DNA from: an uncultured Verrucomicrobiae bacterium
GTDB taxonomy: Bacteria; Verrucomicrobiota; Verrucomicrobiia; Palsa-1439
Length of the DNA stretch: 64,000 nucleotides
NCBI GenBank assembly: GCA_963712025.1
Contig: CAVQGJ010000011.1
Span: forward strand, 455,929 to 519,928
Direction: 5' to 3'
The position numbers and the translations under genes were made by a program. Below are positions 1 through 30,501 of this stretch, piece after piece. The stretch's first letter is position 1. Each line of letters begins with the position of its first letter. Under the pieces are notes generated by a model, which saw only the letters and a list, made by a program, of their open reading frames with translations, made no database searches and was not told the origin of the DNA.

Positions 1-527
1 ATCGTTTCGAGCTTGGGCACGTCCAGATCGAACATGCGCGCCAGCAACCCCAGCACAAACATGTTCTTGCCCTTGTCCTTCGCGGTGCCGCCAATGGCTT
101 CAACGGTCTGGCCCGTGATCGGCACGCCGACCGACCGATACCGCTTTTGGTTTTCCTCGGGCTTGACGTTATCCGAGTCGTAAATCAGAATCCCGCCGTC
201 GCGGAGGGTGTTGATGTGGTCGTTGTACGAATGCTGGTAGAACGCAACGAGAATGTCCACGTCATCGCCCGCGCTCAGGACTTCTCCCGTGCCGAGGCGC
301 ACCTGATAAATGCTGGGGCCACCCGAAATCGTCGCCGGAATCGTCATGTACGTCATGACGTCCTTGTCGGTGCGGCCAGCCAACCGCGCCAAAAAACCGC
401 CAATGGCCTGAATGCCGTCCTGTGAATTCCCCGCCAGCCGAATTACTGCATCTTGAATTCTTCGTCCACGCTGGGGCTGTTGGCCGCCAGACGGGGCAGA
501 AGTATCTGCAACTTTTTGATCAATCAT
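1..527 (-). CDS. korA: 2-oxoacid:ferredoxin oxidoreductase alpha subunit (KorA-like), N-terminal ~175 codons; gene continues past the window start
   Basis: Own translation of the minus strand from ATG 527-525: MIDQKVADTSAPSGG..IQDAVIRLAGNSQDGIQAIGGFLARLAGR..GGPSIYQVRLGTGEVLSAGDDVDILVAFYQ..GKNMFVLGLLARMFDL. This is a typical KorA/PorA-type N-terminus. It is absent from the ORF track only because it has no stop in the window. Confidence 0.7.
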   Translation of the reverse strand, partial: MIDQKVADTSAPSGGQQPQRGRRIQDAVIRLAGNSQDGIQAIGGFLARLAGRTDKDVMTYMTIPATISGGPSIYQVRLGTGEVLSAGDDVDILVAFYQHSYNDHINTLRDGGILIYDSDNVKPEENQKRYRSVGVPITGQTVEAIGGTAKDKGKNMFVLGLLARMFDLDVPKLET

Positions 528-718
528 TTCCTCGTGTTCCTTCAAAAAGGGTTCCCAACCAGAGGGAGCCACCCGAGAGCTCGTCACTACAAGTGGAATA
601 TATTATCAGAGAGCTTCCCCCTGTCAACCACGAGACCAACCCCCCAATGGGAAAAGCCATTGACCGGATGGCTGTCATGCGATATTTTCCCGGTGGTGGT
701 AACCCTCAGAGACCAGTT

Positions 719-2125
719 ATGGCTGAGAAGAATAACGCCAACATAAATCGGCACGCCAACGACTTCTACCAGAAGGCGATTCAGGCGGTCGAACGCGGTA
801 ATCTCGATTATGCGATCGAGATGTTCATCCAATGCCTGAACCTCGAGCCGGGTTATACCAAGGCCCGCCGCAACCTGCGCGCTACGCAAATGAAGAAGAC
901 CGAGTCCGCAGGTGGCTTCAAGCGCATGTTGGTGGGCACGAAGCTCCAGCCGCTCTTGGCGAAGGCCAAAATGGCTGTCCAGAAGAATCCCGTCGAAGCG
1001 ATGAGCATCGCCGAACAAGCGTTGTCGGAGGATCCCAAGAACGGCCAGGCCCTGATGACTCTCGCCGAAGCTGCCGAGGTTGCCCAGCTTCCGGACACGG
1101 TCGTGCAAACACTCGAAACATACACCCGGCTCAATCCCAAAGACAGCAAGGCGCTGCATTGGCTGGCGCGCGCGTATATCGCGACGGGACAGCATGATCT
1201 GGCCCGCGAAACCTACGATCGCCTGCTCCAGATCAACCCAAACGATTTCGATGCACAACAGGGCGCCAAGGATGCGACAGCCAAAGGCGCGATGTCGGGT
1301 GGCGGTTGGGAAGGAGATGGATCCTTCCGCGACGCGCTCAAGGACAAGGACGAATCCATCGCCTTGGAGCAGGAATCCCGTGTCGTCCGCGCCGAGGACA
1401 TGGTCGCCAACCTCATTCAGGAGAAGCTTGAGGCATTGTCCAAGGACCCGGAGAATCCGGTGATCCAGCGCGAACTCGGCAAGCTCTACGCCCAGAAAGA
1501 AAACTTTGACGAAGCCCTGCGTTACCTCGAAGCACTGTACGCGAAAGAAGGCGGAACGGATCCGTCTCTCGAACGTGAGATCGGCGACACCAAGGTCAAG
1601 CGCCTCGAAACGCAGTTGAACGCCAAGAAGAAACAACTGGAGACAAACCCGGCCAATGCCGCCGCGCTGCAAAACGAGATCACCACGCTCGAGTCCGATT
1701 TGGACAAGCTCAAGCTTTTCGAAGCCGAGCGTCTCGTGGAACGGTACCCCAATGATCTCATGTACCGGTTCGATCTCGGTGCCCTGTACATGAAAGCGGG
1801 CAATATTCAGGGCGCGATCGAGCAATTTCAAAAATCCCGCGGCCAGCCGCAGCGCCGCGTGGCGTCCCTGAATTACCTGGGCCAGTGTTTCCAGCAGATG
1901 GACCTCCACGACCTAGCCATTGACCAATACAATGAGGCCATCGGCGAACTGCCCACGATGGACGGACTGAAGAAGGACTTGTTGTACAATCTGGGTTTGG
2001 CCTACGAACAACTCGGCGATCCGGAAAAGGCTATCGCCGAGTTCAAGAAAATCGCCGCCGTCGATTTCGGCTATCGCGACGTGCGCGAACGGATCATGCG
2101 CAAACCCGCACCGAAAAAGCCCTAA
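719..2125 (+). CDS. tetratricopeptide (TPR) repeat protein
   Basis: ORF 422..2125. The first ~99 codons overlap the divergent korA start region and look non-coding, so the start was moved to ATG 719 (MAEKNNANINRHANDFYQKAIQAVERGNLDYAIEMF..). TPR-like helical repeats run throughout. Confidence 0.7.
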   Translation: MAEKNNANINRHANDFYQKAIQAVERGNLDYAIEMFIQCLNLEPGYTKARRNLRATQMKKTESAGGFKRMLVGTKLQPLLAKAKMAVQKNPVEAMSIAEQALSEDPKNGQALMTLAEAAEVAQLPDTVVQTLETYTRLNPKDSKALHWLARAYIATGQHDLARETYDRLLQINPNDFDAQQGAKDATAKGAMSGGGWEGDGSFRDALKDKDESIALEQESRVVRAEDMVANLIQEKLEALSKDPENPVIQRELGKLYAQKENFDEALRYLEALYAKEGGTDPSLEREIGDTKVKRLETQLNAKKKQLETNPANAAALQNEITTLESDLDKLKLFEAERLVERYPNDLMYRFDLGALYMKAGNIQGAIEQFQKSRGQPQRRVASLNYLGQCFQQMDLHDLAIDQYNEAIGELPTMDGLKKDLLYNLGLAYEQLGDPEKAIAEFKKIAAVDFGYRDVRERIMRKPAPKKP

Positions 2126-2159
2126 AGTCCCACCGTCTCCCCGCGCACCGTCACCGCAG

Positions 2160-2827
2160 TCAGCCTCCAGCCTCGTCGCATTTCGACCAAACGTCCCGCA
2201 GGTTTCGAACTGCGTCCGCGCGTCGCCCTTCCCGGTCCACGAGAATCGCGCTCATCCCCGCCGCCTGCGCGCCGCGCACGTCTTCTTCGGAACTATCCCC
2301 AACATGCACCGCCCATCCCGCGTCAACGCCCGCCGCCCGAAGCGCCGCCCGGAAGATTTCCACAGCCGGTTTCTCGGCCCCGACTTCGCAGGAGATGGTC
2401 AGGGAATCGAAGTGCCGCGCCAATCCCAGCCCGTCCAGCAGCGCCCGCAGTCGTTCATCCCAATTGGAAAGGACGCCGACGTGCAGGCCGCGCGCCCGCG
2501 CCTCGCGCATCGTGTCCTCGACATCCGGAAAAACCCGCCACACGTCGGGCCGGGCAAACGTCTCAAACAACTCCTCGAAGCACGCTTCGTTCTCCTGCCC
2601 GAGCACGCGAAAGACGAGTTCTCGCCACCATTCCTTGCGCGACACGGTTAGCCCGGGTCGCTTCAACGCCGCCCAGCCCGGCGGAACGCGCCCTCCATCT
2701 CGTCGGCGGTTCGGCTGATCCCGTGTCGCCGGGCCACTTCCGCGTACACGGCCCCGACCGACGGATACGGCCCGATCAGCGTCCCGCCCACGTCGAAGAA
2801 AATCGCCCGCCGCCCAGCCCCGCTCAC
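2160..2827 (-). CDS. HAD-superfamily hydrolase (IA-like), reading frame broken once
   Basis: Motif I (GTG 2827; MSGAGRRAIFFDVGGTLIGPYPSVGAVYAEVARRHGI..) is in the frame of ORF 2663..3445. The rest (..WAALKRPGLTVSRKEWWRELVF..GVLSNWDERL..AEKPAVEIF..VHVGDSSEEDV) is in ORF 2160..2873. The span is 668 nt (3n+2). The GTG start overlaps the folC stop (GTGA). Confidence 0.6.
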
Positions 2828-4152
2828 TGCAACACCAGCTCGCGCGGCGTCTTCGCCCTCGTTCCCGCCGCAAACCCGAGCCGATCCAGCGCCTCGCCCA
2901 CCAGGAACAGCGATCCCGCGATGGCGATCGTTTCCGCGTTCTCGACGCGCGCCTGCGCGTACGCGGCGGAAAGGTCCCGCTCGACCGTGATCCGCGCCGC
3001 CGGGTTCGCCGCCTGGCACCACCGCGCCAACTGGTCGGGCTCGCTCGTCCGTTCGCTGTTGACGGGCACGCACAACACGCGCACCGCCAGCGGCGCGAGA
3101 ATCTGGCACATCTGGTCGTAATTCTTGTCCCGCAGCACGCCGAGGATCAACGTCAGCTTCCGTCCCGCGGCATGTTCGCGCAACGTCGCCGCCAATCGCT
3201 CCGCCGCCGCCGCGTTGTGCGCGCCGTCCAGCACCACCGTCGGGTCGTGGTGCACGATCTGGAACCGGCCCGGCCACGCCGTGCACGCCAGGCCTTCCGG
3301 CACCTGTCTCGCATTGACCGTCAATCCCGACGCTTCGAGCGCCGCAACTGCCGTCGCGCAATTGATCGTCTGATGCGCCCCGAGCAACGGAATCGTCAGC
3401 GGCCCGTAATCCCGGCGCGTGCCCGTCAACTCCACCCGCTGGCACCGCTCGTCTTCACTCAACCGCGTCGCGCCAATCTCCCGCCCCACCACCGTCAACG
3501 TGCTGCTCTGCGCCGCCGCGGCGCTCTGGATCACCGCGAGCGCTTCTTCCGTCGCCGCCGCTGTGACCACCGGCACGCCGGCCTTGATGATGCCGCATTT
3601 CTCGCCCGCAATCTGCGCCAGCGTCTCGCCGAGATACTGCGTGTGATCGAACGCGATGTTGGTGATCACCGAAACCAGGGGCACAATCACGTTCGTCGCG
3701 TCGAGCCGGCCGCCCAGCCCCGTCTCCCACACCACCACGTCCACGTTCTGCTCCGCGAAATACCGCAGCGCGATGGCGGTCACCGCCTCGAAAAACGTCG
3801 GTGCGCGAAACTCCGGGTTGGCGCCCACCGCTTCCAGCACCGGCTTGATCTCCTCGACCAGCCGCACCACGTCGCTCTCGGAAATCGGCTGGCCGTTGAT
3901 CTGGAATCGCTCGCAGAACGACACGAGATGCGGCGACGTGTACAGCCCCGTCTTGTAGCCCGCCGTGGACAGCACCGCGCTCAACATCGCCGCCACGCTC
4001 CCCTTCCCGTTCGTGCCAGCGATATGGATGAATCGCAACGACTTCTGCGGATCACCCATCAACCGCAACAAATACTGCATCGTCTCCAGGCCGAGTTTCT
4101 GGCCGAAAAGCCGGATGCCGTACAGGTATTCGATGGTCTCGGGATATGTCAA
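2824..4152 (-). CDS. folC: bifunctional folylpolyglutamate synthase / dihydrofolate synthase
   Basis: 442 aa; MTYPETIEYLYG..FIHIAGTNGKGSVAAML..YTSPHLVSFCERF. Mur-ligase family P-loop; classic accD-folC synteny. Confidence 0.9.
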   Translation of the reverse strand: MTYPETIEYLYGIRLFGQKLGLETMQYLLRLMGDPQKSLRFIHIAGTNGKGSVAAMLSAVLSTAGYKTGLYTSPHLVSFCERFQINGQPISESDVVRLVEEIKPVLEAVGANPEFRAPTFFEAVTAIALRYFAEQNVDVVVWETGLGGRLDATNVIVPLVSVITNIAFDHTQYLGETLAQIAGEKCGIIKAGVPVVTAAATEEALAVIQSAAAAQSSTLTVVGREIGATRLSEDERCQRVELTGTRRDYGPLTIPLLGAHQTINCATAVAALEASGLTVNARQVPEGLACTAWPGRFQIVHHDPTVVLDGAHNAAAAERLAATLREHAAGRKLTLILGVLRDKNYDQMCQILAPLAVRVLCVPVNSERTSEPDQLARWCQAANPAARITVERDLSAAYAQARVENAETIAIAGSLFLVGEALDRLGFAAGTRAKTPRELVLQ

Positions 4153-24296: not shown

Positions 24297-26691
24297 TTAG
24301 GCGGGCTGCTTTTCAGATGCTTCCCATCGCGCGCTGGACGCCTTGACCGATTCGTAGTTGGCATCAAGGCTCGGCTGTAAAAGCACAAGCGCAGCAATGC
24401 GACGGGCCATCGCCGTAACTTCTTGGACCTCCTCAACCCGCAACGAGCGGCCAAGCAGCGCATCTTCTCGGTAGCTAAGCCATTTCTTGATGACCTGATA
24501 GCCGCCGATGGTGTAATCCCATATCTGCCAACGCGCCGCGCAATCGCACCGGGAAGTAATAGGCGTCGTCGCGCAACGCATGGTCGTCGCCTAGCAACCG
24601 TGTAAAACAAAATGGCACGCCTTCAGGATTTGCCTTTCCTGTGCATCGTGTAAGCAAGAAACTGTTGCCGGGCCAACATTGCGCCCAAAGCGTAGGACGC
24701 GGTTCGTTCCAAAGCGGTCTGACCCCACTGTAATAGCAGTAGCGGGTATCGAAGGGGCGAACGAAGTATGCTCGCAAATGTGATGGCACGAACTTTTCGA
24801 CGGCAAGAATCTTATTTCTAGTCTTCCTAGCGTCAAATCGTGCCGCGTTCTCGACTAGACCACCTCCTGCTGCCGCAAGCGTTTCCCAAGTCACGTTAGG
24901 GTCACAATATCTTCTCATCCGCTGTTCAAGCGTCGCTTGGTCAGTGTCAATTAGTGTCCCGCCGCGTTTCTCCATCAGACCATTGGGCGGAGCCTGCGCG
25001 CATAATTCAGAAATCTTAGGCCACTTTGCATAGTGGTCGGCAACATTGCCCGGGACGGAACGAGAACCGATTGCTTTTCTTTGGTTCCGCTATGGCGAAT
25101 TTCTCCTCGAATTGCCAAGCACGACCAAAATATCGCCCTCATGTTTCACCTGATTGGCAGCGTCGTACTCCTGTTTCAATTCCGGCATGTTCATTTCCAG
25201 TTGTTGCAGCCGAGCCTTGCCCTCATTAGATGGCGGTTGCCAGCCGGTGAGTGAGTTCGTCAGATAAACACGGACGCGATCAGTCTCGGTGAGCGGGGCT
25301 TTCAGGTTTTGCAACAATAAGCCGATTTGAAGGTGAGAAACCACAAATGGTGCCGGTAAATCTCGAATCCAAACAGACGTTCAAGCGTTGCCTTTTTAAG
25401 CTCGTCTGGAACGGTGGCATCGCCACTATTCTCTTGGAGGGTCGCGTGAATCCTCCTGATGACTTCCAGCAAATAACCCGCCGTTCCACAACAGGGGTCA
25501 AGCACGTGGACGTGCTTGTTGGCGAATCCGTCCTCCAAATCAAGTTCTTCACGCAATATCTTGTCCACTCGCTCAACTTGGTAACGGATAATTTCTCGCG
25601 GGGTCAGCCAGACGCCAAGTTGCTTTCGTAATTCCGGGTCGAAGGCCTTTAGGAATGGCTCATAGAAGTATTGCACGGCCTGATGCTCGTCAAACCGAGC
25701 AAAGAAAGTGGTGCGCTCCACTCGGTTAAGTAGGTTTTCCGTCCACCCTAGGACTTCCGTAAGACCAAGAGGTTTCAATTTGGACGGCGAGGAAACCTGT
25801 TGAAACAACGCTTGGATAACGGGCAGCCTGAGATAATCGACGCACTCCCGCCAGCGAAAGTCATTTTTCCGGGTTGGATTTTCCTTGTGCCATAGAACCC
25901 ACCCGGAGAACACGCCATAGAAAAGCGTTTGCACAAGTGTCGAATGGAAAAAGTGTTGAGCTTCTTCATCCGAGAACTTCATACCCAGTCCTTCTTCCAA
26001 TGCTGTTCGCGTTGAGGCCAATGCTGGCAAATCGGCCTGCTGTTCGACATGGATGCGAGCATCGCGAGCGTAGGACGCGAGAAACCAAGCGACCATTTCT
26101 GGTTCAATTATCGTGGAGGAATTGAGCATCACCCGCTTCAAGTATTCTGCTATCAATTCCCCATGACGCTCTGCCGTCTTGCGAGCATGGTCAGTAGCTC
26201 TCCAAAAATCATCCTCGTTGGTTGCCAAGGAGTAGGTCTCCAGTTCTACTGGCTTTCCATTCGTGTCACGTCCAACCAAGAGAAAGCTCCAGAAATTTGT
26301 CACCAATACTTGACCGTATTTTCCCAAGTACCGTATGACCTGCTCGCCCTTCGCCACATCCCGCAGAGATTCTCCGGCGGGTTTGGCTTCGATTACTCCG
26401 CGGTCGGGGTCCAACTCAGCTAATGGAGGCACGGCTTGGTTTTGTTTGAGCAAAGATGTCGTGAATAATCCGAAGTCGGGAATTCCTTTGCCGTGGTTCT
26501 TCGGATGGTTGATGGAGGTGATCTTAGGTTTGAGTGTGTCGCCAATTGTATTCAGTAGATCGGAGAGAGCCGGGTATCCTGAAGTTTCGTCCGTACCTGC
26601 TCCACGAATTGACTGCACGCGGTTGAGATAGCGTTCTAGCGCCTCGGTAAACTTCGACGTAGTGGTTTTTTCAGGTTTCATCGTCATCATC
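24297..26691 (-). pseudogene. MmeI-like type IIG restriction-modification enzyme remnant (several frame breaks plus an internal deletion of the NPPY region)
   Basis: N-terminal PD..EAK nuclease-like motif (GIPDFGLF..RGVIEAKP). SAM motif I VLDPCCGTAGYL. ..GFEI|LPAPFVVSHLQIGLLLQNL.. ILVVLGN is followed directly by FEEKFAIAEPKKSNRFSFRP. Type-ISP-like C-terminal domain ..WDYTIGGYQVIKKWLSYRE. The pieces lie in ORFs 25302..26879, 25090..25344, 24475..24975 and 24297..24581. Confidence 0.65.
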
Positions 26692-26961
26692 ATCCCACGG
26701 GTCCGGGTAATACCCGGTGTCGTCAGCAATCGCCTTGCTGACACGTTCCGGTATCGAGCCATCCTTGCAAAACTGTCCGGCTTCCTCTGCGGTGACTGGA
26801 ATGGCATCGTTCCATTCACCGACTGTGCCCTTCCAGGGTTTCCACTCGCCGTTGTCGAAAGTGAGTATGCCCCCGCCATCCCTCATCGGCTCTGGGTCGA
26901 TTAACTGGCGAGCGCGGGTTATTGAATATCTGCCATATAGGTCATCGCCCATGCGAGTCAC
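26671..26961 (-). CDS. small hypothetical protein with acidic tail (96 aa)
   Basis: Its start overlaps the upstream gene's stop by 4 nt, and its own stop overlaps the start of the RM remnant. Ends ..YYPDPWDDDDDET. Confidence 0.5.
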   Translation of the reverse strand: MTRMGDDLYGRYSITRARQLIDPEPMRDGGGILTFDNGEWKPWKGTVGEWNDAIPVTAEEAGQFCKDGSIPERVSKAIADDTGYYPDPWDDDDDET

Positions 26962-28067
26962 GAAGCCTGCTTGTCCAACTGTTTCACCCGGTTCTTTAGC
27001 TCGACTTCACGCGCGGCCCATTCCTTGCCGAGCGCCGCGTGCTCCAAGCAGTCAAATAATTCTTCGCTGGTCAAACCACCGTTGCCTAGCAACTTGCCCA
27101 CCGCTTCCCGGTCGCGCTCGACAGCCAACTGCATTTGTTCGAGGTCTTTCACGCCCGCGAACGTCTGCTTGCGGATGGATAGCAGGGTGTCCTTCACCCG
27201 TTCCAACAGGTCGAGATTGCGCAGGAATTTCTCGACGACCAGATTCACCGCGTCCAGCCGGACCGCCAACGTCTTGCCATCTTTCTCGGCTTGCGCTCGT
27301 TCAATGACCATGCGACGCGCCAGCAAGTAGGCGATACGCAGTGGCTCGAAATTGTACCGGGCGCGATCAGTGATGGCCACGAAGCCGCGTTCCTCGAAAT
27401 ACCGTAGTGACCCGACCTCACTTTTGATGGCATCCTTCGCCGTCGCGTCGTCAAGTACGATGATTTGCTCGTCCGACTTTCGGTTGGCCTTCATTTCCAA
27501 CAATTGCGATAACACCGTGTCACCATCCGCGACCACGGCCCGCTTCGCAATCGTACCGAGAGCCATTCCGACTACCAATTTACTTTCGACAGCGATGATT
27601 CGCGGCGACGGCAAGCGAGGGTCGTTGACGGTCACGAGAATATCGCCGGTCTTATTCAGTTCATCCTCAGCCGTCGCGCCGGTAAGCGCCACGGTGTCAG
27701 CTAGTTTTTCGGCTCGAATGATGTCTTTGAGCACGTCGCTGTATTCGACTTCCGCCTCCGCGCCTTTGCGGGTCGTACCGGCCAGAATCTCGCGGTTCTT
27801 ATAGAGCAGTTTGAGGCTTTCGAGTTGCACACCAAGCTCGTCCTCAGTGCGGGCAAGGAACGCGCTTACCCGGTCCTCCATGAGCGCCAGTGACCCGATG
27901 CCGACGGCCTTCCGTACTGCATCGGCGCGGTCGTCGGCCTTGGTGTTGGACAGGTATTCAAACACCAACGGATGCGTGAGCGTGAGGTGGTCAACGACGA
28001 CGGACTTGCTCTCCGCGTCCATCGTGACCTTTTCCTTGTCCGGCACTTTCGCTGGTTGCTTGCTCAT
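26958..28067 (-). CDS. coiled-coil protein with PD-(D/E)xK-like nuclease motif (DUF2130/RmuC-like pattern)
   Basis: 369 aa. ..TRKGAEAEVEYSDVLKDII..TGDILVTVNDPRLPSPRIIAVESKLV.. (D..ExK spacing). Long helical N- and C-terminal regions. Confidence 0.55.
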   Translation of the reverse strand: MSKQPAKVPDKEKVTMDAESKSVVVDHLTLTHPLVFEYLSNTKADDRADAVRKAVGIGSLALMEDRVSAFLARTEDELGVQLESLKLLYKNREILAGTTRKGAEAEVEYSDVLKDIIRAEKLADTVALTGATAEDELNKTGDILVTVNDPRLPSPRIIAVESKLVVGMALGTIAKRAVVADGDTVLSQLLEMKANRKSDEQIIVLDDATAKDAIKSEVGSLRYFEERGFVAITDRARYNFEPLRIAYLLARRMVIERAQAEKDGKTLAVRLDAVNLVVEKFLRNLDLLERVKDTLLSIRKQTFAGVKDLEQMQLAVERDREAVGKLLGNGGLTSEELFDCLEHAALGKEWAAREVELKNRVKQLDKQAS

Positions 28068-28381
28068 TTGCGCCCTTCTTTCTCTTTGATCTCACTGACG
28101 ATGGCCGCTTGTACCGCCTTTTGCGGCGTGTCTATCGGCGGCACTCCCAACACGGCCACGTACTTCGTCTTTTCGTCCTGTGCGCCGTCCAGATGGCTCC
28201 ACGCATAACATCGCTTGGCCTTCGGATGGCCGACCAAATCGAACACTTCCACGATACCGCGCCATGCTGTCTTGCCCTGAAAGACTTCATGCACCGGCAC
28301 GGATTCGATGTGCTTGGAATCGCAGCCGTGCAGCTTGCCGATCACGGCCCGCAGTTCTTCGACGTATTCAGGATTCGCCAC
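28064..28381 (-). CDS. small conserved hypothetical protein (105 aa)
   Basis: MANPEYVEELRAVIGKLHGCDSKHIESVPVHEVFQGKTAWRGIVEVFDLVGHPKAKRCYAWSH.. Its start overlaps the transposase stop by 14 nt. Confidence 0.55.
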   Translation of the reverse strand: MANPEYVEELRAVIGKLHGCDSKHIESVPVHEVFQGKTAWRGIVEVFDLVGHPKAKRCYAWSHLDGAQDEKTKYVAVLGVPPIDTPQKAVQAAIVSEIKEKEGRK

Positions 28382-29198
28382 AGCGTTCTATCAGTTCCGC
28401 AACCGTCCACTGGCTGCTTTCCACGCCTGCCGCTTGTGCGGGAGTCATGCGAATAGCCCCATGCGATTTGCAGAAATTATAGTACGCAAAACTCAGCGCG
28501 ACCGCAGCCTTAAAATTCGGCAGCTTCTTGCTAAAGGCGTTGGTCAACCGGGTGAGGCGTCGGCAGTGCATCCGTAGAGTGTGATTCTGTTTCTCGACAT
28601 GCGAGGTTGTGATTCGGGCAACCAGTGGGTTGCCTTGGATAATTTTCCTTTCGACTTCCACGACCTCTGCCGGGCTGTACCGGCTCGCCGCTTCCTTCGT
28701 GAGATTCGTGACGGAGTAGGTTTTTACAATTTGCCCATAATCGACTTCGCTGCCGAACCCGTAATCGACAGCTTCGGGATAAGTACCAAGAGCGTCTGAC
28801 GAAAGCTGGACGCGATTCGCCAGCCGTCCAGCCAAATCATCCATGAATCGCCGTGCAAAATACCGGTCGCGCTGGCCCACGACAAAGGCAGGAATCAATT
28901 TAGTATCGCAGTCCAAGGCAATCCATGTCCAAACATCGCCATACACGCGCGCCCGTGCCGCGTTCTTTCGCTTGGCTCCAATGAAGCCCCAAATTTCATC
29001 AACTTCGACGTTGCGGCATGGCAGGTTGACCATTTTCGCATCCATGATGGCCTCACAGGCAGTGCCAACGCGGAGGCCTAGCCTCATAATCGTATCCCTG
29101 TGGATGCCCGTCATCCGCTCAATGGAGCGGATGGAATTGCCTTCGGCCAAAGCGCCGATCACCACCGCCTGTTTGTCTGGTTTCAAGTTGTTTGCCAT
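28368..29198 (-). CDS. IS1-family transposase (single-ORF type)
   Basis: 276 aa. N-terminal HTH (EGNSIRSIERMTGIHRDTI). DDE region VEVDEIWGFIGAKRKN..VWTWIALD..LSSDALGTY..TSHVEKQNHTLRMHCRRLTRLTNAFSKK..YYNFCKSH. Confidence 0.8.
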   Translation of the reverse strand: MANNLKPDKQAVVIGALAEGNSIRSIERMTGIHRDTIMRLGLRVGTACEAIMDAKMVNLPCRNVEVDEIWGFIGAKRKNAARARVYGDVWTWIALDCDTKLIPAFVVGQRDRYFARRFMDDLAGRLANRVQLSSDALGTYPEAVDYGFGSEVDYGQIVKTYSVTNLTKEAASRYSPAEVVEVERKIIQGNPLVARITTSHVEKQNHTLRMHCRRLTRLTNAFSKKLPNFKAAVALSFAYYNFCKSHGAIRMTPAQAAGVESSQWTVAELIERCGES

Positions 29199-29226
29199 AT
29201 CGCACCTCTATTCTTTATGGGATTTA

Positions 29227-29272
29227 GTGTACTACAGAAAGTAATGAAGTCAACAACTATTTTGTAGTACAC
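29227..29272. promoter_or_regulatory. operator-like palindrome between the divergent transposase and RHH genes
   Basis: GTGTACTACA (29227-29236) and TGTAGTACAC (29263-29272), a perfect 10-bp inverted repeat with a 26-nt spacer. The core GTAGT resembles the element TIR tip. Confidence 0.45.
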
Positions 29273-29290
29273 AAACTTTTCTTTTGTGCT

Positions 29291-29473
29291 ATGCTTCCTT
29301 CCATGAGCAAACGCATGGGACGGCCCAAGCTGCCCAAGGACGAAGCCCGCAGCATCGTCTTCCAGATTCGTATTTCGCCAAAGGAGCAACGGCGCTTCAA
29401 GGCAGCGGCCCGCAAGGCTGGCAAAGAACCGACCGAATGGGCCAGAAACGCCTTGCTTTCTGTGGCCCTTTAG
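29291..29473 (+). CDS. small ribbon-helix-helix-like DNA-binding protein
   Basis: MLPSMSKRMGRPKLPKDEARSIVFQIRISPKEQRRFKAAARKAGKEPTEWARNALLSVAL. The beta-strand then two-helix pattern is typical of the CopG/Arc type. Confidence 0.5.
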   Translation: MLPSMSKRMGRPKLPKDEARSIVFQIRISPKEQRRFKAAARKAGKEPTEWARNALLSVAL

Positions 29474-29484
29474 CGTATAGAGAT

Positions 29485-29578
29485 TGGCGGAAGCTGAGGG
29501 AGTCGAACCCCCATCGCTGGTCAGAGCGAGACCATTGGGGTGTAAAGTCCAGTTGCGCACCGGCGCGGGTCAGCTTCC
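29485..29578 (-). tRNA. selC-like (tRNA-Sec / allo-tRNA-like) gene with a non-canonical anticodon arm; possibly a pseudo-tRNA
   Basis: GGAAGCUGACCCGCGCCGGUGCGCAACUGGACUUUACACCCCAAUGGUCUCGCUCUGACCAGCGAUGGGGGUUCGACUCCCUCAGCUUCCGCCA. It has an 8-9 bp acceptor stem, a T arm with UUCGACU, a D stem with the 4-nt loop CGGU, a long variable hairpin and an encoded CCA. Confidence 0.5.
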
Positions 29579-29913
29579 AAAAGTGATAGCCTACGCGGGC
29601 CGTGCACAAGATCAGTGGAAGCTGAGTGTGCGCGGCCCGCCCTTTTGTATCCTCGCGCTTGTCCCGGACCGGCCATGCCAGGGGGCGCTCGCGACTAATA
29701 CTTGGTGCATCATGGCGATTTCCTTTCACACGCGCACCATATCGAATCGTGCCTGACCACGTAAGAGACCGGATGGAAAGCGGCCCGTGGCGTTCACGGG
29801 ACACGCTGCCGAGCGGGGGAAGTCTCAGGGGGGACAAGAAGGGGGTGCCTTGGTGTCCCCAAGGGGCTACTGAGGGGGTGCCTTGATGACCCTGCGGGAA
29901 AGCGGACGCGAGA

Positions 29914-30501
29914 CTACTGCGGCGGCCCGCGTTGGAGAAACCTCAGTCCAATCCGATGGCAAAGTTTCTTCGTGCGTCCAATATCACCAACAATGCTCTT
30001 TTGAAGTTTGGAACACAGCCACTCGTGGACTTGTGGAATGCTCCGCAGAGCATTGACCTCGGTTTGGTGTTGCAGGAGTATCTGGTAGATCACCAGAGCC
30101 GTTGTCGCCGCTTTTGGAAGGCGCTCAGGATGCCGGTCATATTTCTGGAAGCATTTAATGCCGTGAAGGAATCCCCGGATGAAGTCCTCGCTTTCTTCCA
30201 GAGTCGAATTCGTGAGCGTGAGCCGTACCGTCGTACCGATAATCACCAGCGTTGACTGGCATTTATCCACCACCAGCTTCGCCTGTTTTGGCGATAGCTT
30301 TTTCATTCCGAGACTGCGACGGTCACGAATGCGGGCGAATTGCGCGAACTGGTATCCCTGCATGGCCCCTTGCCGGAACTTGGTTGATGGTTTTGGGCCG
30401 AGTGGAACGTACATCCGAAAGATGAGATTCGTGACGTTGCCCACCCAAAGCGGCTCCTTGGGGTCCGGCCAAGTGGCGTTCGTTTCGCGTTCCGGTGTCA
30501 A
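29914..30501 (-). CDS. hypothetical protein (up to 195 aa)
   Basis: ORF only. A possible internal start is MKKLSPKQAKL. No recognised domain. Confidence 0.4.
   Translation of the reverse strand: MTPERETNATWPDPKEPLWVGNVTNLIFRMYVPLGPKPSTKFRQGAMQGYQFAQFARIRDRRSLGMKKLSPKQAKLVVDKCQSTLVIIGTTVRLTLTNSTLEESEDFIRGFLHGIKCFQKYDRHPERLPKAATTALVIYQILLQHQTEVNALRSIPQVHEWLCSKLQKSIVGDIGRTKKLCHRIGLRFLQRGPPQ

Follow-up and report, generated by a model that had tools for sequence, protein, structure and literature searches.

A 94-nt tRNA-like element on a Verrucomicrobiia chromosome

The DNA analyzed here, hereafter the window, is a stretch of 64 kb (64,000 nucleotides (nt); contig CAVQGJ010000011.1, positions 455,929 to 519,928) from an uncultured Verrucomicrobiae bacterium. 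It is chromosomal, with genes for UvrD/PcrA, HisA/F, ClpX and the type II secretion proteins E and F, and its PcrA falls into a cluster, at 90% identity or more, with proteins from Verrucomicrobiia metagenome-assembled genomes. Our subject is a 94-nt tRNA-like RNA gene on its minus strand and the genes around it. Read along that strand, the locus consists of ORF195, an open reading frame (ORF) of 195 amino acids (aa), a spacer, a conserved leader, the tRNA-like element, a convergent gene for a ribbon-helix-helix (RHH) protein, a pair of palindromes with a promoter, an IS1-type transposase gene, and ORF2. Comparative analysis leads us to favor, with moderate confidence, the reading of this element as a functional but non-decoding allo-tRNA-like RNA of the tRNA-Ser/tRNA-Sec lineage. 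Its parts are as follows.

29485..29578, minus strand: tRNA-like RNA gene, 94 nt, GGAAGCUGACCCGCGCCGGUGCGCAACUGGACUUUACACCCCAAUGGUCUCGCUCUGACCAGCGAUGGGGGUUCGACUCCCUCAGCUUCCGCCA (direct reading, RF01852 and covariance model R1)
29570..29578, minus strand: 5' strand of the acceptor stem, GGAAGCUGA, which pairs with 29489-29497 (UCAGCUUCC)
29485-29488, minus strand: GCCA tail of the element
29555..29566, minus strand: D arm GCGC-CGGU-GCGC, with the D-loop GG unchanged in all copies
29536..29551, minus strand: anticodon-arm remnant, a 3-bp UGG/CCA stem with the 10-nt loop ACUUUACACC
29541-29545, minus strand: invariant UUACA in the anticodon-arm loop
29514..29529, minus strand: variable arm UCGCU-CUGACC-AGCGA, present in every copy
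29498..29510, minus strand: T arm GGG-UUCGACU-CCC, with the loop constant except for one base in locus L193

Direct reading bears out most of the anatomy given in the original prediction, which had been made from the DNA alone: the extent and strand of the element, an 8-bp acceptor stem (GGAAGCUG/CAGCUUCC) to which a ninth pair (A9-U) can be added, the discriminator G73 followed by an encoded CCA, the T arm GGG(G)-UUCGACU-CCC(U), and a GCGC/GCGC D stem with the loop CGGU. The prediction had also seen the hallmarks of selenocysteine tRNA (tRNA-Sec), and here the result is divided. The Rfam model of tRNA-Sec, RF01852, aligns with the element from end to end (E = 1.2e-5 in a 296-nt slice), but the score of 35.5 bits lies below the gathering score of 47. 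Running tRNA finders, suggested at the time as a check, lent no support beyond this sub-threshold match: ARAGORN made no tRNA call across the 64-kb window and five related loci, and an Rfam scan of the window returned no family at its gathering score. Taken alone, the element is tRNA-Sec-like yet sub-threshold. Its single-sequence minimum free energy (MFE) fold, at -37.4 kcal/mol (z = -2.3), retains the acceptor and D stems and loses the T arm to pairing between CCCCA and UGGGG. No selA, selB, selD or UGA-containing selenoprotein gene was seen among the window ORFs scanned, in a scan that was not exhaustive.

Homologs of the element

Related loci were gathered through the contigs of several transposase homologs. 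Four metagenome loci from separate samples (JGI, ENA, Logan), which we designate L121, L128, L131 and L193, carry a homolog of the element at the same position; L122, L123 and L153 are the L121 contig, which was counted once. The transposases of L121, L128 and L131 are 95%, 87% and 94% identical to that of the window, respectively, and L193, the contig of P0034, has a truncated transposase call with 94% identity. A covariance model, R1, built from these four copies and that of the window, scores the five at 89-112 bits (98 for the window, where it has one match only); its scores for ordinary class II tRNAs do not exceed 40 bits, and L149, a distant relative from a metagenome, reaches 40.7 bits. 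With RF01852, L131, L128 and L121 score 37.5, 32.4 and 31.5 bits, L193 gives no match at E <= 0.1, and L149, at 48.2 bits, is just over the threshold.

The RNA of L149 (730-817, minus strand) is tRNA-Sec-like with an 8/4 branch (acceptor and T-stem base pairs) and the loop CCUUACACA, and is followed by an ORF encoding a Rep/DnaD-like helix-turn-helix protein. The D/anticodon segment of this RNA is repeated over 17 nt (CATGCCACAGCCTTACA) about 260 nt upstream, at ~1046-1063.

Pattern searches extended the comparison. The pattern GGAAG..YGGTG..GGTTCGANTCC..CTTCC, run against a genome collection, proved too loose and returned genuine tRNA-Sec genes with the anticodon UCA, which were used for comparison; among the matches listed, the identity between the element and such genes does not exceed 67%, with a median of 62% (more than 100 genes). 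Also among the matches listed are more than 100 UCA tRNA-Sec genes, from metagenome-assembled genomes of Halieaceae/Cellvibrionales, Spirochaetes, Zixibacteria and further groups, in which just 12 nt separate the T loop from the discriminator. A tighter pattern for metagenomes retrieved mainly ordinary tRNA-Ser and tRNA-Leu genes, together with the L121 contig and L149. Two scans of viral contigs found nothing, the plasmid collection gave no DNA match, the loci of the RHH homologs P0124 and P0126 lack the element, and a literature search for the element sequence found no relevant paper. Over ~30 nt, phage tRNA-Ser genes match the 3' third of the element (positions 60-94) at 91-93% identity, which fits a serine-type acceptor and T arm.

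Compensatory substitutions in the tRNA body

In an alignment of six sequences (the five close copies and L149) fitted to the structure model, 99.2% of the cells in the acceptor, D, variable and T helices hold standard pairs, and 9 of the 20 helix pairs have compensatory changes, that is, changes on both sides. None of 500 column shuffles matched the observed pairing and covariation; when the 3' partners were slid by 1-3 columns, pairing was 41-55% and compensatory pairs numbered 0-1. As far as these six sequences go, the structure of the tRNA body is under purifying selection, the paired cells and compensatory changes pointing to selection on structure rather than neutral decay.

Individual events were read from a hand-made structural alignment of the five close copies. 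In the acceptor stem, pair 4 changes from A-U to G-C in L193, and pair 7 from U-A to C-G in L121. At the third D pair, the window and L131 have G-C, and L121, L128 and L193 have A-U. The variable stem, which covaries at a length of 5-6 bp across the copies, has U-A replaced by C-G at pair 5 in L131, where an extra G-C yields UCGCCG/CGGCGA. The first T pair changes from G-C to A-U in L131, and the outer pair of the anticodon stem is compensated in L193 (CGG/CCG). G-U pairs are confined to the minus strand. While the stems vary in this way, UUACA and the T- and D-loop bases stay constant.

The copies alternate between a ninth acceptor pair and a fourth T pair, one of them always being formed, so that the acceptor and T branch spans 12 positions in all copies, with a G-A mismatch in L193 alone. 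The window can adopt either arrangement; L121 and L193 are 9/3, and L131, L128 and L149 are 8/4. An allo-tRNA architecture of the 8/4 or 9/3 type, which the original prediction had mentioned, is supported by this toggling and by the compensatory substitutions, and the same branch and compensated structure support the claim that the element is distinct from an ordinary tRNA. The D stem has 4 bp, with a loop of 4 nt (window, L131) or 5 nt (L121, L128, L193); the D arm of L149 has 6 bp and a tetraloop. G73 is found in four of the five close copies.

A revised reading of the variable and anticodon arms

Two parts of the predicted structure had to be redrawn. The variable hairpin had been given as UGGUC/GACCA, a pairing that can form in the window and L131 only and is impossible in L121, L128 and L193; the pairing common to all copies is UCGCU/AGCGA. 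For the anticodon stem, the statement that only two of five pairs form holds in the register CUGGA-CUUUACA-CCCCA, but all copies keep a 3-bp stem instead, UGG/CCA in general, CGG/CCG in L193 (4 bp if G-U is counted) and CAG/CUG in L149. The loop above it has 8, 9 or 10 nt depending on the copy.

The apparent UUA anticodon is one possible register, but the base that would be U33 in that register, immediately before the invariant UUACA, is U, A, U, G, U and C over the copies, and C occupies position 37. Read as N-U-UAC-A-Y, the loop has an invariant U33, an invariant valine anticodon UAC and an invariant A37, which makes the UUA (ochre) reading less likely than the UAC one, judging from the aligned copies. 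Both registers sit on a non-canonical stem, and UCA occurs in none of the five copies. A complementary target of the UUACA loop, sought by eye, was dropped, as matches in the nearby leaders and operator did not exceed 5-6 nt.

A structured leader and ORF195 accompany the element

Upstream of the element, on the same strand, lie two further conserved features.

29579..29729, minus strand: conserved 150-nt leader that abuts the 5' end of the tRNA-like element (five-locus alignment and RNAalifold)
29655-29688, minus strand: leader hairpin A
29595-29640, minus strand: leader hairpin B
29914..30501, minus strand: ORF195, 195 aa, upstream of the element; the true start is probably internal

The leader is conserved in all five loci. 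RNAalifold predicts 41 pairs, 8 of them changed on both sides, and hairpins A and B both have compensatory changes in L121. The leader 5' end, GAAAGGA, is able to pair with AUCACUUUU, which abuts G1 of the element. No Rfam family matches the leader. Directly upstream of it, four of the five loci have a -10-like TATGGT. The spacer of ~170 nt between ORF195 and the leader is conserved only in L121.

Several other features of this region were recorded. The leader contains an unpaired conserved block, CCAUG..CAC..GUA(G/U)UAG. The element 3' acceptor strand and trailer recur in the loop of hairpin B as an imperfect direct repeat of 18 nt (15/18; 29481-29498 and 29609-29626), and this loop is complementary to the element 5' acceptor strand at 9/9 positions in the window and more weakly in the other loci. 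The spacer holds a 20-nt direct repeat, 90% identical (29840-29859 and 29873-29892). A T-box-like 'GUA specifier' in the leader was considered and dropped, as it rests on 3-nt complementarity, and a small leader ORF, of 33 codons in the window, is not conserved in L121.

ORF195 lies upstream of the element in all four loci that have upstream sequence, with aa identities to the window of 85% (L121), 49% (L128) and 39% (L131). It has three close database homologs only; a profile search collected 144 cluster representatives, of which 10 were scanned, all without an informative Pfam domain. ORF195 itself has no Pfam, NCBIfam or PADLOC match. Its AlphaFold2 model is all-helical (predicted local distance difference test score, pLDDT, 72) and has no Foldseek match in the PDB. 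The trio of RHH, transposase and ORF2 genes is found without the element in L124, L126 and L129; thus, as judged from gene order in these loci, ORF195 and the leader are closer companions of the element than the transposase is.

The transposase side of the locus

Downstream of the element, the following features were identified.

29303..29473, plus strand: NikA-like RHH gene, 56 aa (PF21983, E = 9.7e-5, below the curated cut-off)
29224..29275: twin palindromes TTTGTGTACTACAAAA and TTCTGTAGTACACTAA around TTGACT-16-TACACT, between the divergent RHH and transposase genes
28368..29198, minus strand: IS1-family DDE transposase-like gene, 276 aa (PF03400, E = 1e-9)
28064..28381, minus strand: ORF2, 105 aa, whose start overlaps the transposase stop codon

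The RHH gene is convergent with the element, its stop codon 11 nt from the element 3' end, and adjoins the transposase gene in most related loci, including some without the element. TTGACT-16-TACACT is the only sigma-70-like promoter, and the palindromes around it are probably the RHH operator, to judge from their arrangement. The transposase scores 66 bits against the NCBIfam model transpos_IS1 (cut-off 100) and has at least 7998 homologs at E <= 1e-20 in metagenomes. ORF2 follows it in all related loci, overlapping it and encoding 100-111 aa.

The element had been described as lying inside the transposon, which was not demonstrated: an IS1-family transposase gene is located 287 nt downstream, and the search for terminal inverted repeats, duplications and second copies was negative. 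Specifically, no convincing terminal inverted repeats enclose the block of element and transposase, a 23-nt candidate repeat was rejected as it is absent from the other loci, and the window has no second copy of the element or of its neighbor genes. As no terminal inverted repeats were found, the transposase gene may not belong to a conventional insertion sequence.

Presence of the element is not uniform among loci with similar transposases. It is absent from L124/L126 (87% transposase identity) and L129 (78%), all three with the RHH-transposase pair, and from L191 (89%), which has neither RHH gene nor element. L194 and L196 have the RHH gene without the element. The related locus L194/L195 (~1-3171) encodes an RHH protein 85% identical to that of the window, a truncated transposase N-terminus and Tn7-like TnsA/TnsB, with no tRNA-like RNA.

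What follows ORF2 looks like a variable cargo slot. In the window, a 369-aa ORF without a family match (26958-28067) stands between ORF2 and ORF3, and it is also present in L193 (94% aa identity); L192 has a 364-aa ORF downstream of ORF2. In L128 and L131 an ORF3 homolog follows ORF2 directly, with no ORF of the 369-aa type, and in L121 other genes come after ORF2. Farther downstream in the window (24475-26879), a type IIG/ISP restriction-modification gene is apparently split into a 525-aa N-terminal piece and a Type_ISP_C fragment.

Proposed function and alternative explanations

We consider it somewhat more probable than the contrary that the element is a functional, non-decoding allo-tRNA-like RNA. 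It would be transcribed together with its 150-nt structured leader and cleaved by RNase P at G1, and its 3' end would be the encoded CCA. Conservation of the D-loop GG and the T-loop UUCGA leads us to expect an L-shaped fold, and recognition by seryl-tRNA synthetase (SerRS) is probable given G1-C72, G2-C71, A3-U70, G73 and the long variable arm. The open anticodon arm, with its loop-proximal stem pairs missing and its loop variable in length, would exclude the RNA from decoding on the ribosome. The exposed invariant loop might instead be read by a partner, for which the ORF195 protein, encoded upstream in every locus that could be checked, is the best, albeit speculative, candidate. The element could then serve, again speculatively, as a tRNA mimic, sensor or regulator of the block of ORF195, RHH and IS1-type transposase genes, rather than as a translation adaptor.

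Much more tentative, and in our estimate quite improbable, is the idea that the leader and the tRNA-like domain make up an RNA of ~245 nt, or a leader and a released mimic, that forms a new RNA-protein module with the ORF195 family and has the invariant UUACA loop as its recognition site. Such a module might act as a charge-sensing or tRNA-mimicking switch that connects translational state to the RHH-controlled IS1-type transposase block or, alternatively, as a tRNA decoy, either protecting from a tRNA-directed toxin or arming one.

Several observations weigh against the functional reading. In stability, the cloverleaf falls 5-6 kcal/mol short of the single-sequence MFE fold in each of the copies. 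For the center of the molecule, RNAalifold prefers to pair G8..C11 with G33..C36; these bases are invariant, one of the pairs is broken in L193, and UUACA stays unpaired. The acceptor stem of L193 contains a G-A mismatch and is followed by A73, and L131 has lost the final A of the encoded CCA. Between copies, the identity of the element (0.68-0.91) is no higher than that of its flanks (0.64-0.87). The sample consists of only five close copies and one distant relative, and the alignment in which pairs were counted was itself fitted to the structure model. ORF195 is without a recognizable fold or domain, its role as a partner being suggested by its position, and the transposase and RHH loci that lack the element indicate that the RHH-transposase module does not require it.

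Some of these points suit a neutral pseudogene, namely a selC or allo-tRNA copy that has lost its function and is shared through common descent. The acceptor and CCA defects of L193 and L131, the disrupted anticodon stem, the sub-threshold Rfam score with no ARAGORN call, and the unexceptional identity between copies would all fit, and there is a precedent in an allo-tRNA pseudogene that overlaps a transposon-related ORF (Mukai et al. 2017, Nucleic Acids Research 45:2776, PMC5389517). We nevertheless think this unlikely, given covariation at 9 of 20 pairs with 99% of cells paired, against ~45% in the slid controls, a 12-position branch preserved by switching between 9/3 and 8/4, a compensated change even in the 3-bp anticodon stem, and constant UUACA and T- and D-loop bases despite stem variation. 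The suggestion of a decayed selC copy in particular did not hold up: the helices are maintained, the branch has 12 rather than 13 bp, the score is below the Rfam threshold, and there is no UCA. That the element is instead an active decoding tRNA carried as mobile cargo, either a serine ochre suppressor (UUA) or a Val-to-Ser missense tRNA (UAC), is highly unlikely in our assessment. Allo-tRNAs with UUA, and one with a valine anticodon, have been reported, and several allo-tRNAs translate efficiently in Escherichia coli; U33, UAC and A37 are invariant in one register, and the CCA, G73 and variable arm are consistent with serine identity. Yet the stem below the loop has 3 bp rather than 5-6 bp, the loop differs between copies, ARAGORN rejects the element, and the six allo-tRNA(UAU) species tested as CUA variants, which belong to a group with stem-destabilizing changes, gave no suppression (PMC5389517). 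The suppressor-type tRNA reading UAA that the original prediction had entertained is unlikely for the same reasons of a 3-bp stem and an 8-10-nt loop, and also because the U33 base of the UUA register is unconserved and its position 37 is a pyrimidine.

The position of the element raises the question of whether it acts in cis, its tRNA shape recruiting RNase P or RNase Z and setting the 3' end of the ORF195-leader transcript; within this scheme, it might also stop, or drive, antisense transcription into the convergent RHH repressor gene. In all loci with upstream sequence, ORF195 precedes the element on the same strand; G1 directly adjoins the conserved, structured leader, the search for a promoter of the element itself gave nothing convincing, and near the element 3' end the only terminator-like hairpin is a weak one inside the RHH gene. 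However, a processing signal would need neither an invariant UUACA nor a maintained variable arm, the spacer between ORF195 and the leader is unconserved outside L121, and TATGGT before the leader in four of five loci suggests a separate transcript, so that we consider an exclusively cis-acting role improbable, to about the same degree as a pseudogene. The least probable of the alternatives is that the tRNA-like gene serves a mobile element as its attachment or target site, a part often played by tRNA and selC genes for genomic islands, or lies in the interior of a transposon. The region at ~20-32 kb has lower G+C and contains a transposase-like gene, restriction-modification fragments and variable cargo, the D/anticodon repeat upstream of the L149 RNA could be taken as a trace of integration, and so could the imperfect repeat of the element 3' end in the leader. 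This last repeat, however, is poorly conserved in other loci; a scan of ORFs near the element brought up no integrase, the 64-kb window contains no further element fragment of at least 13 nt, terminal inverted repeats were not found around the block, and synteny with L121 extends to either side of the element. The proposal of an integration element therefore finds no support in either an integrase or a partial duplicate.

Comparison with known tRNA classes

Allo-tRNAs serve as chassis for genetic-code expansion and are, to our knowledge, the only natural tRNAs with 8/4 or 9/3 acceptor branches. We know of no native role for them, notably for the abundant translation-inactive ones near transposons or toxin-antitoxin genes.

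Comparative evidence at the present locus suggests selection on the tRNA body combined with an anticodon arm that stays open and has a conserved loop. Set beside the allo-tRNAs of Mukai et al. (2017) by description, not sequence to sequence, the element shares with them the 12-bp acceptor and T branch (9/3 or 8/4), the long variable arm and G73 (such an arm with G73 or U73 being the serine identity set), a short-loop, tRNA-Sec-like D arm, and detection as sub-threshold tRNA-Sec matches. It also resembles a large group among them that has stem-destabilizing changes and possible five-stem junctions, shows no suppression in E. coli, and is encoded beside transposon-related or toxin-antitoxin genes (PMC5389517); here, too, there are stem-destabilizing changes, and the neighbor genes are transposon-related and small and antitoxin-like. 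The inactive allo-tRNA(UAU) group likewise departs from the standard cloverleaf. The differences lie in the anticodon arm (a 3-bp stem and 8-10-nt loop, as opposed to a longer-than-normal stem and 7-nt loop), the D stem (4 bp, as opposed to a long stem that carries a tetraloop, the loop here being of 4 or 5 nt), the loop motif (UUACA, as opposed to UAU), and the 150-nt structured leader and ORF195 that accompany the element.

Compared with tRNA-Sec, the element has the GGAAG start and CUUCCGCCA end, the CGGU D loop, the entry CUGGACUU into the anticodon loop, the UUCGACU T loop and the long variable arm, but lacks the UCA anticodon and the 6-bp anticodon stem, and its D stem is of 4 rather than 6 bp. 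From T loop to G73 it has 12 nt instead of the 8/5 arrangement (13 bp), a distance that is also found in a minor type of UCA tRNA-Sec. With tRNA-Ser it shares G1-C72, G2-C71, A3-U70, G73 and the long variable arm; it differs in its 8- or 9-bp acceptor stem, 4- or 3-bp T stem and tetraloop D arm, and has neither a serine anticodon nor a canonical anticodon arm. Unlike canonical elongator tRNAs, it is not 7/5, has no 5-bp anticodon stem with a 7-nt loop, and has conserved U33 and A37 in the UAC register only.

A functional parallel may exist in tRNA-Other of Bacillus cereus (Ataide et al. 2005, cited in PMC5389517), which that citation presents as a non-decoding tRNA-like small RNA. As far as this secondary account goes, the two have in common a tRNA shape, possible aminoacylation and no normal adaptor role, and differ in sequence, with no relationship between them, and in genomic context.

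The family described here extends the described allo-tRNA class and introduces no new principle. It is a small allo-tRNA-like family in Verrucomicrobiia, outside the Clostridia, Proteobacteria and Acidobacteria listed as allo-tRNA hosts in PMC5389517, and its fixed neighbors, namely the leader, ORF195 and an RHH-controlled transposase, offer a concrete system in which the function of a non-decoding allo-tRNA-like RNA can be approached.

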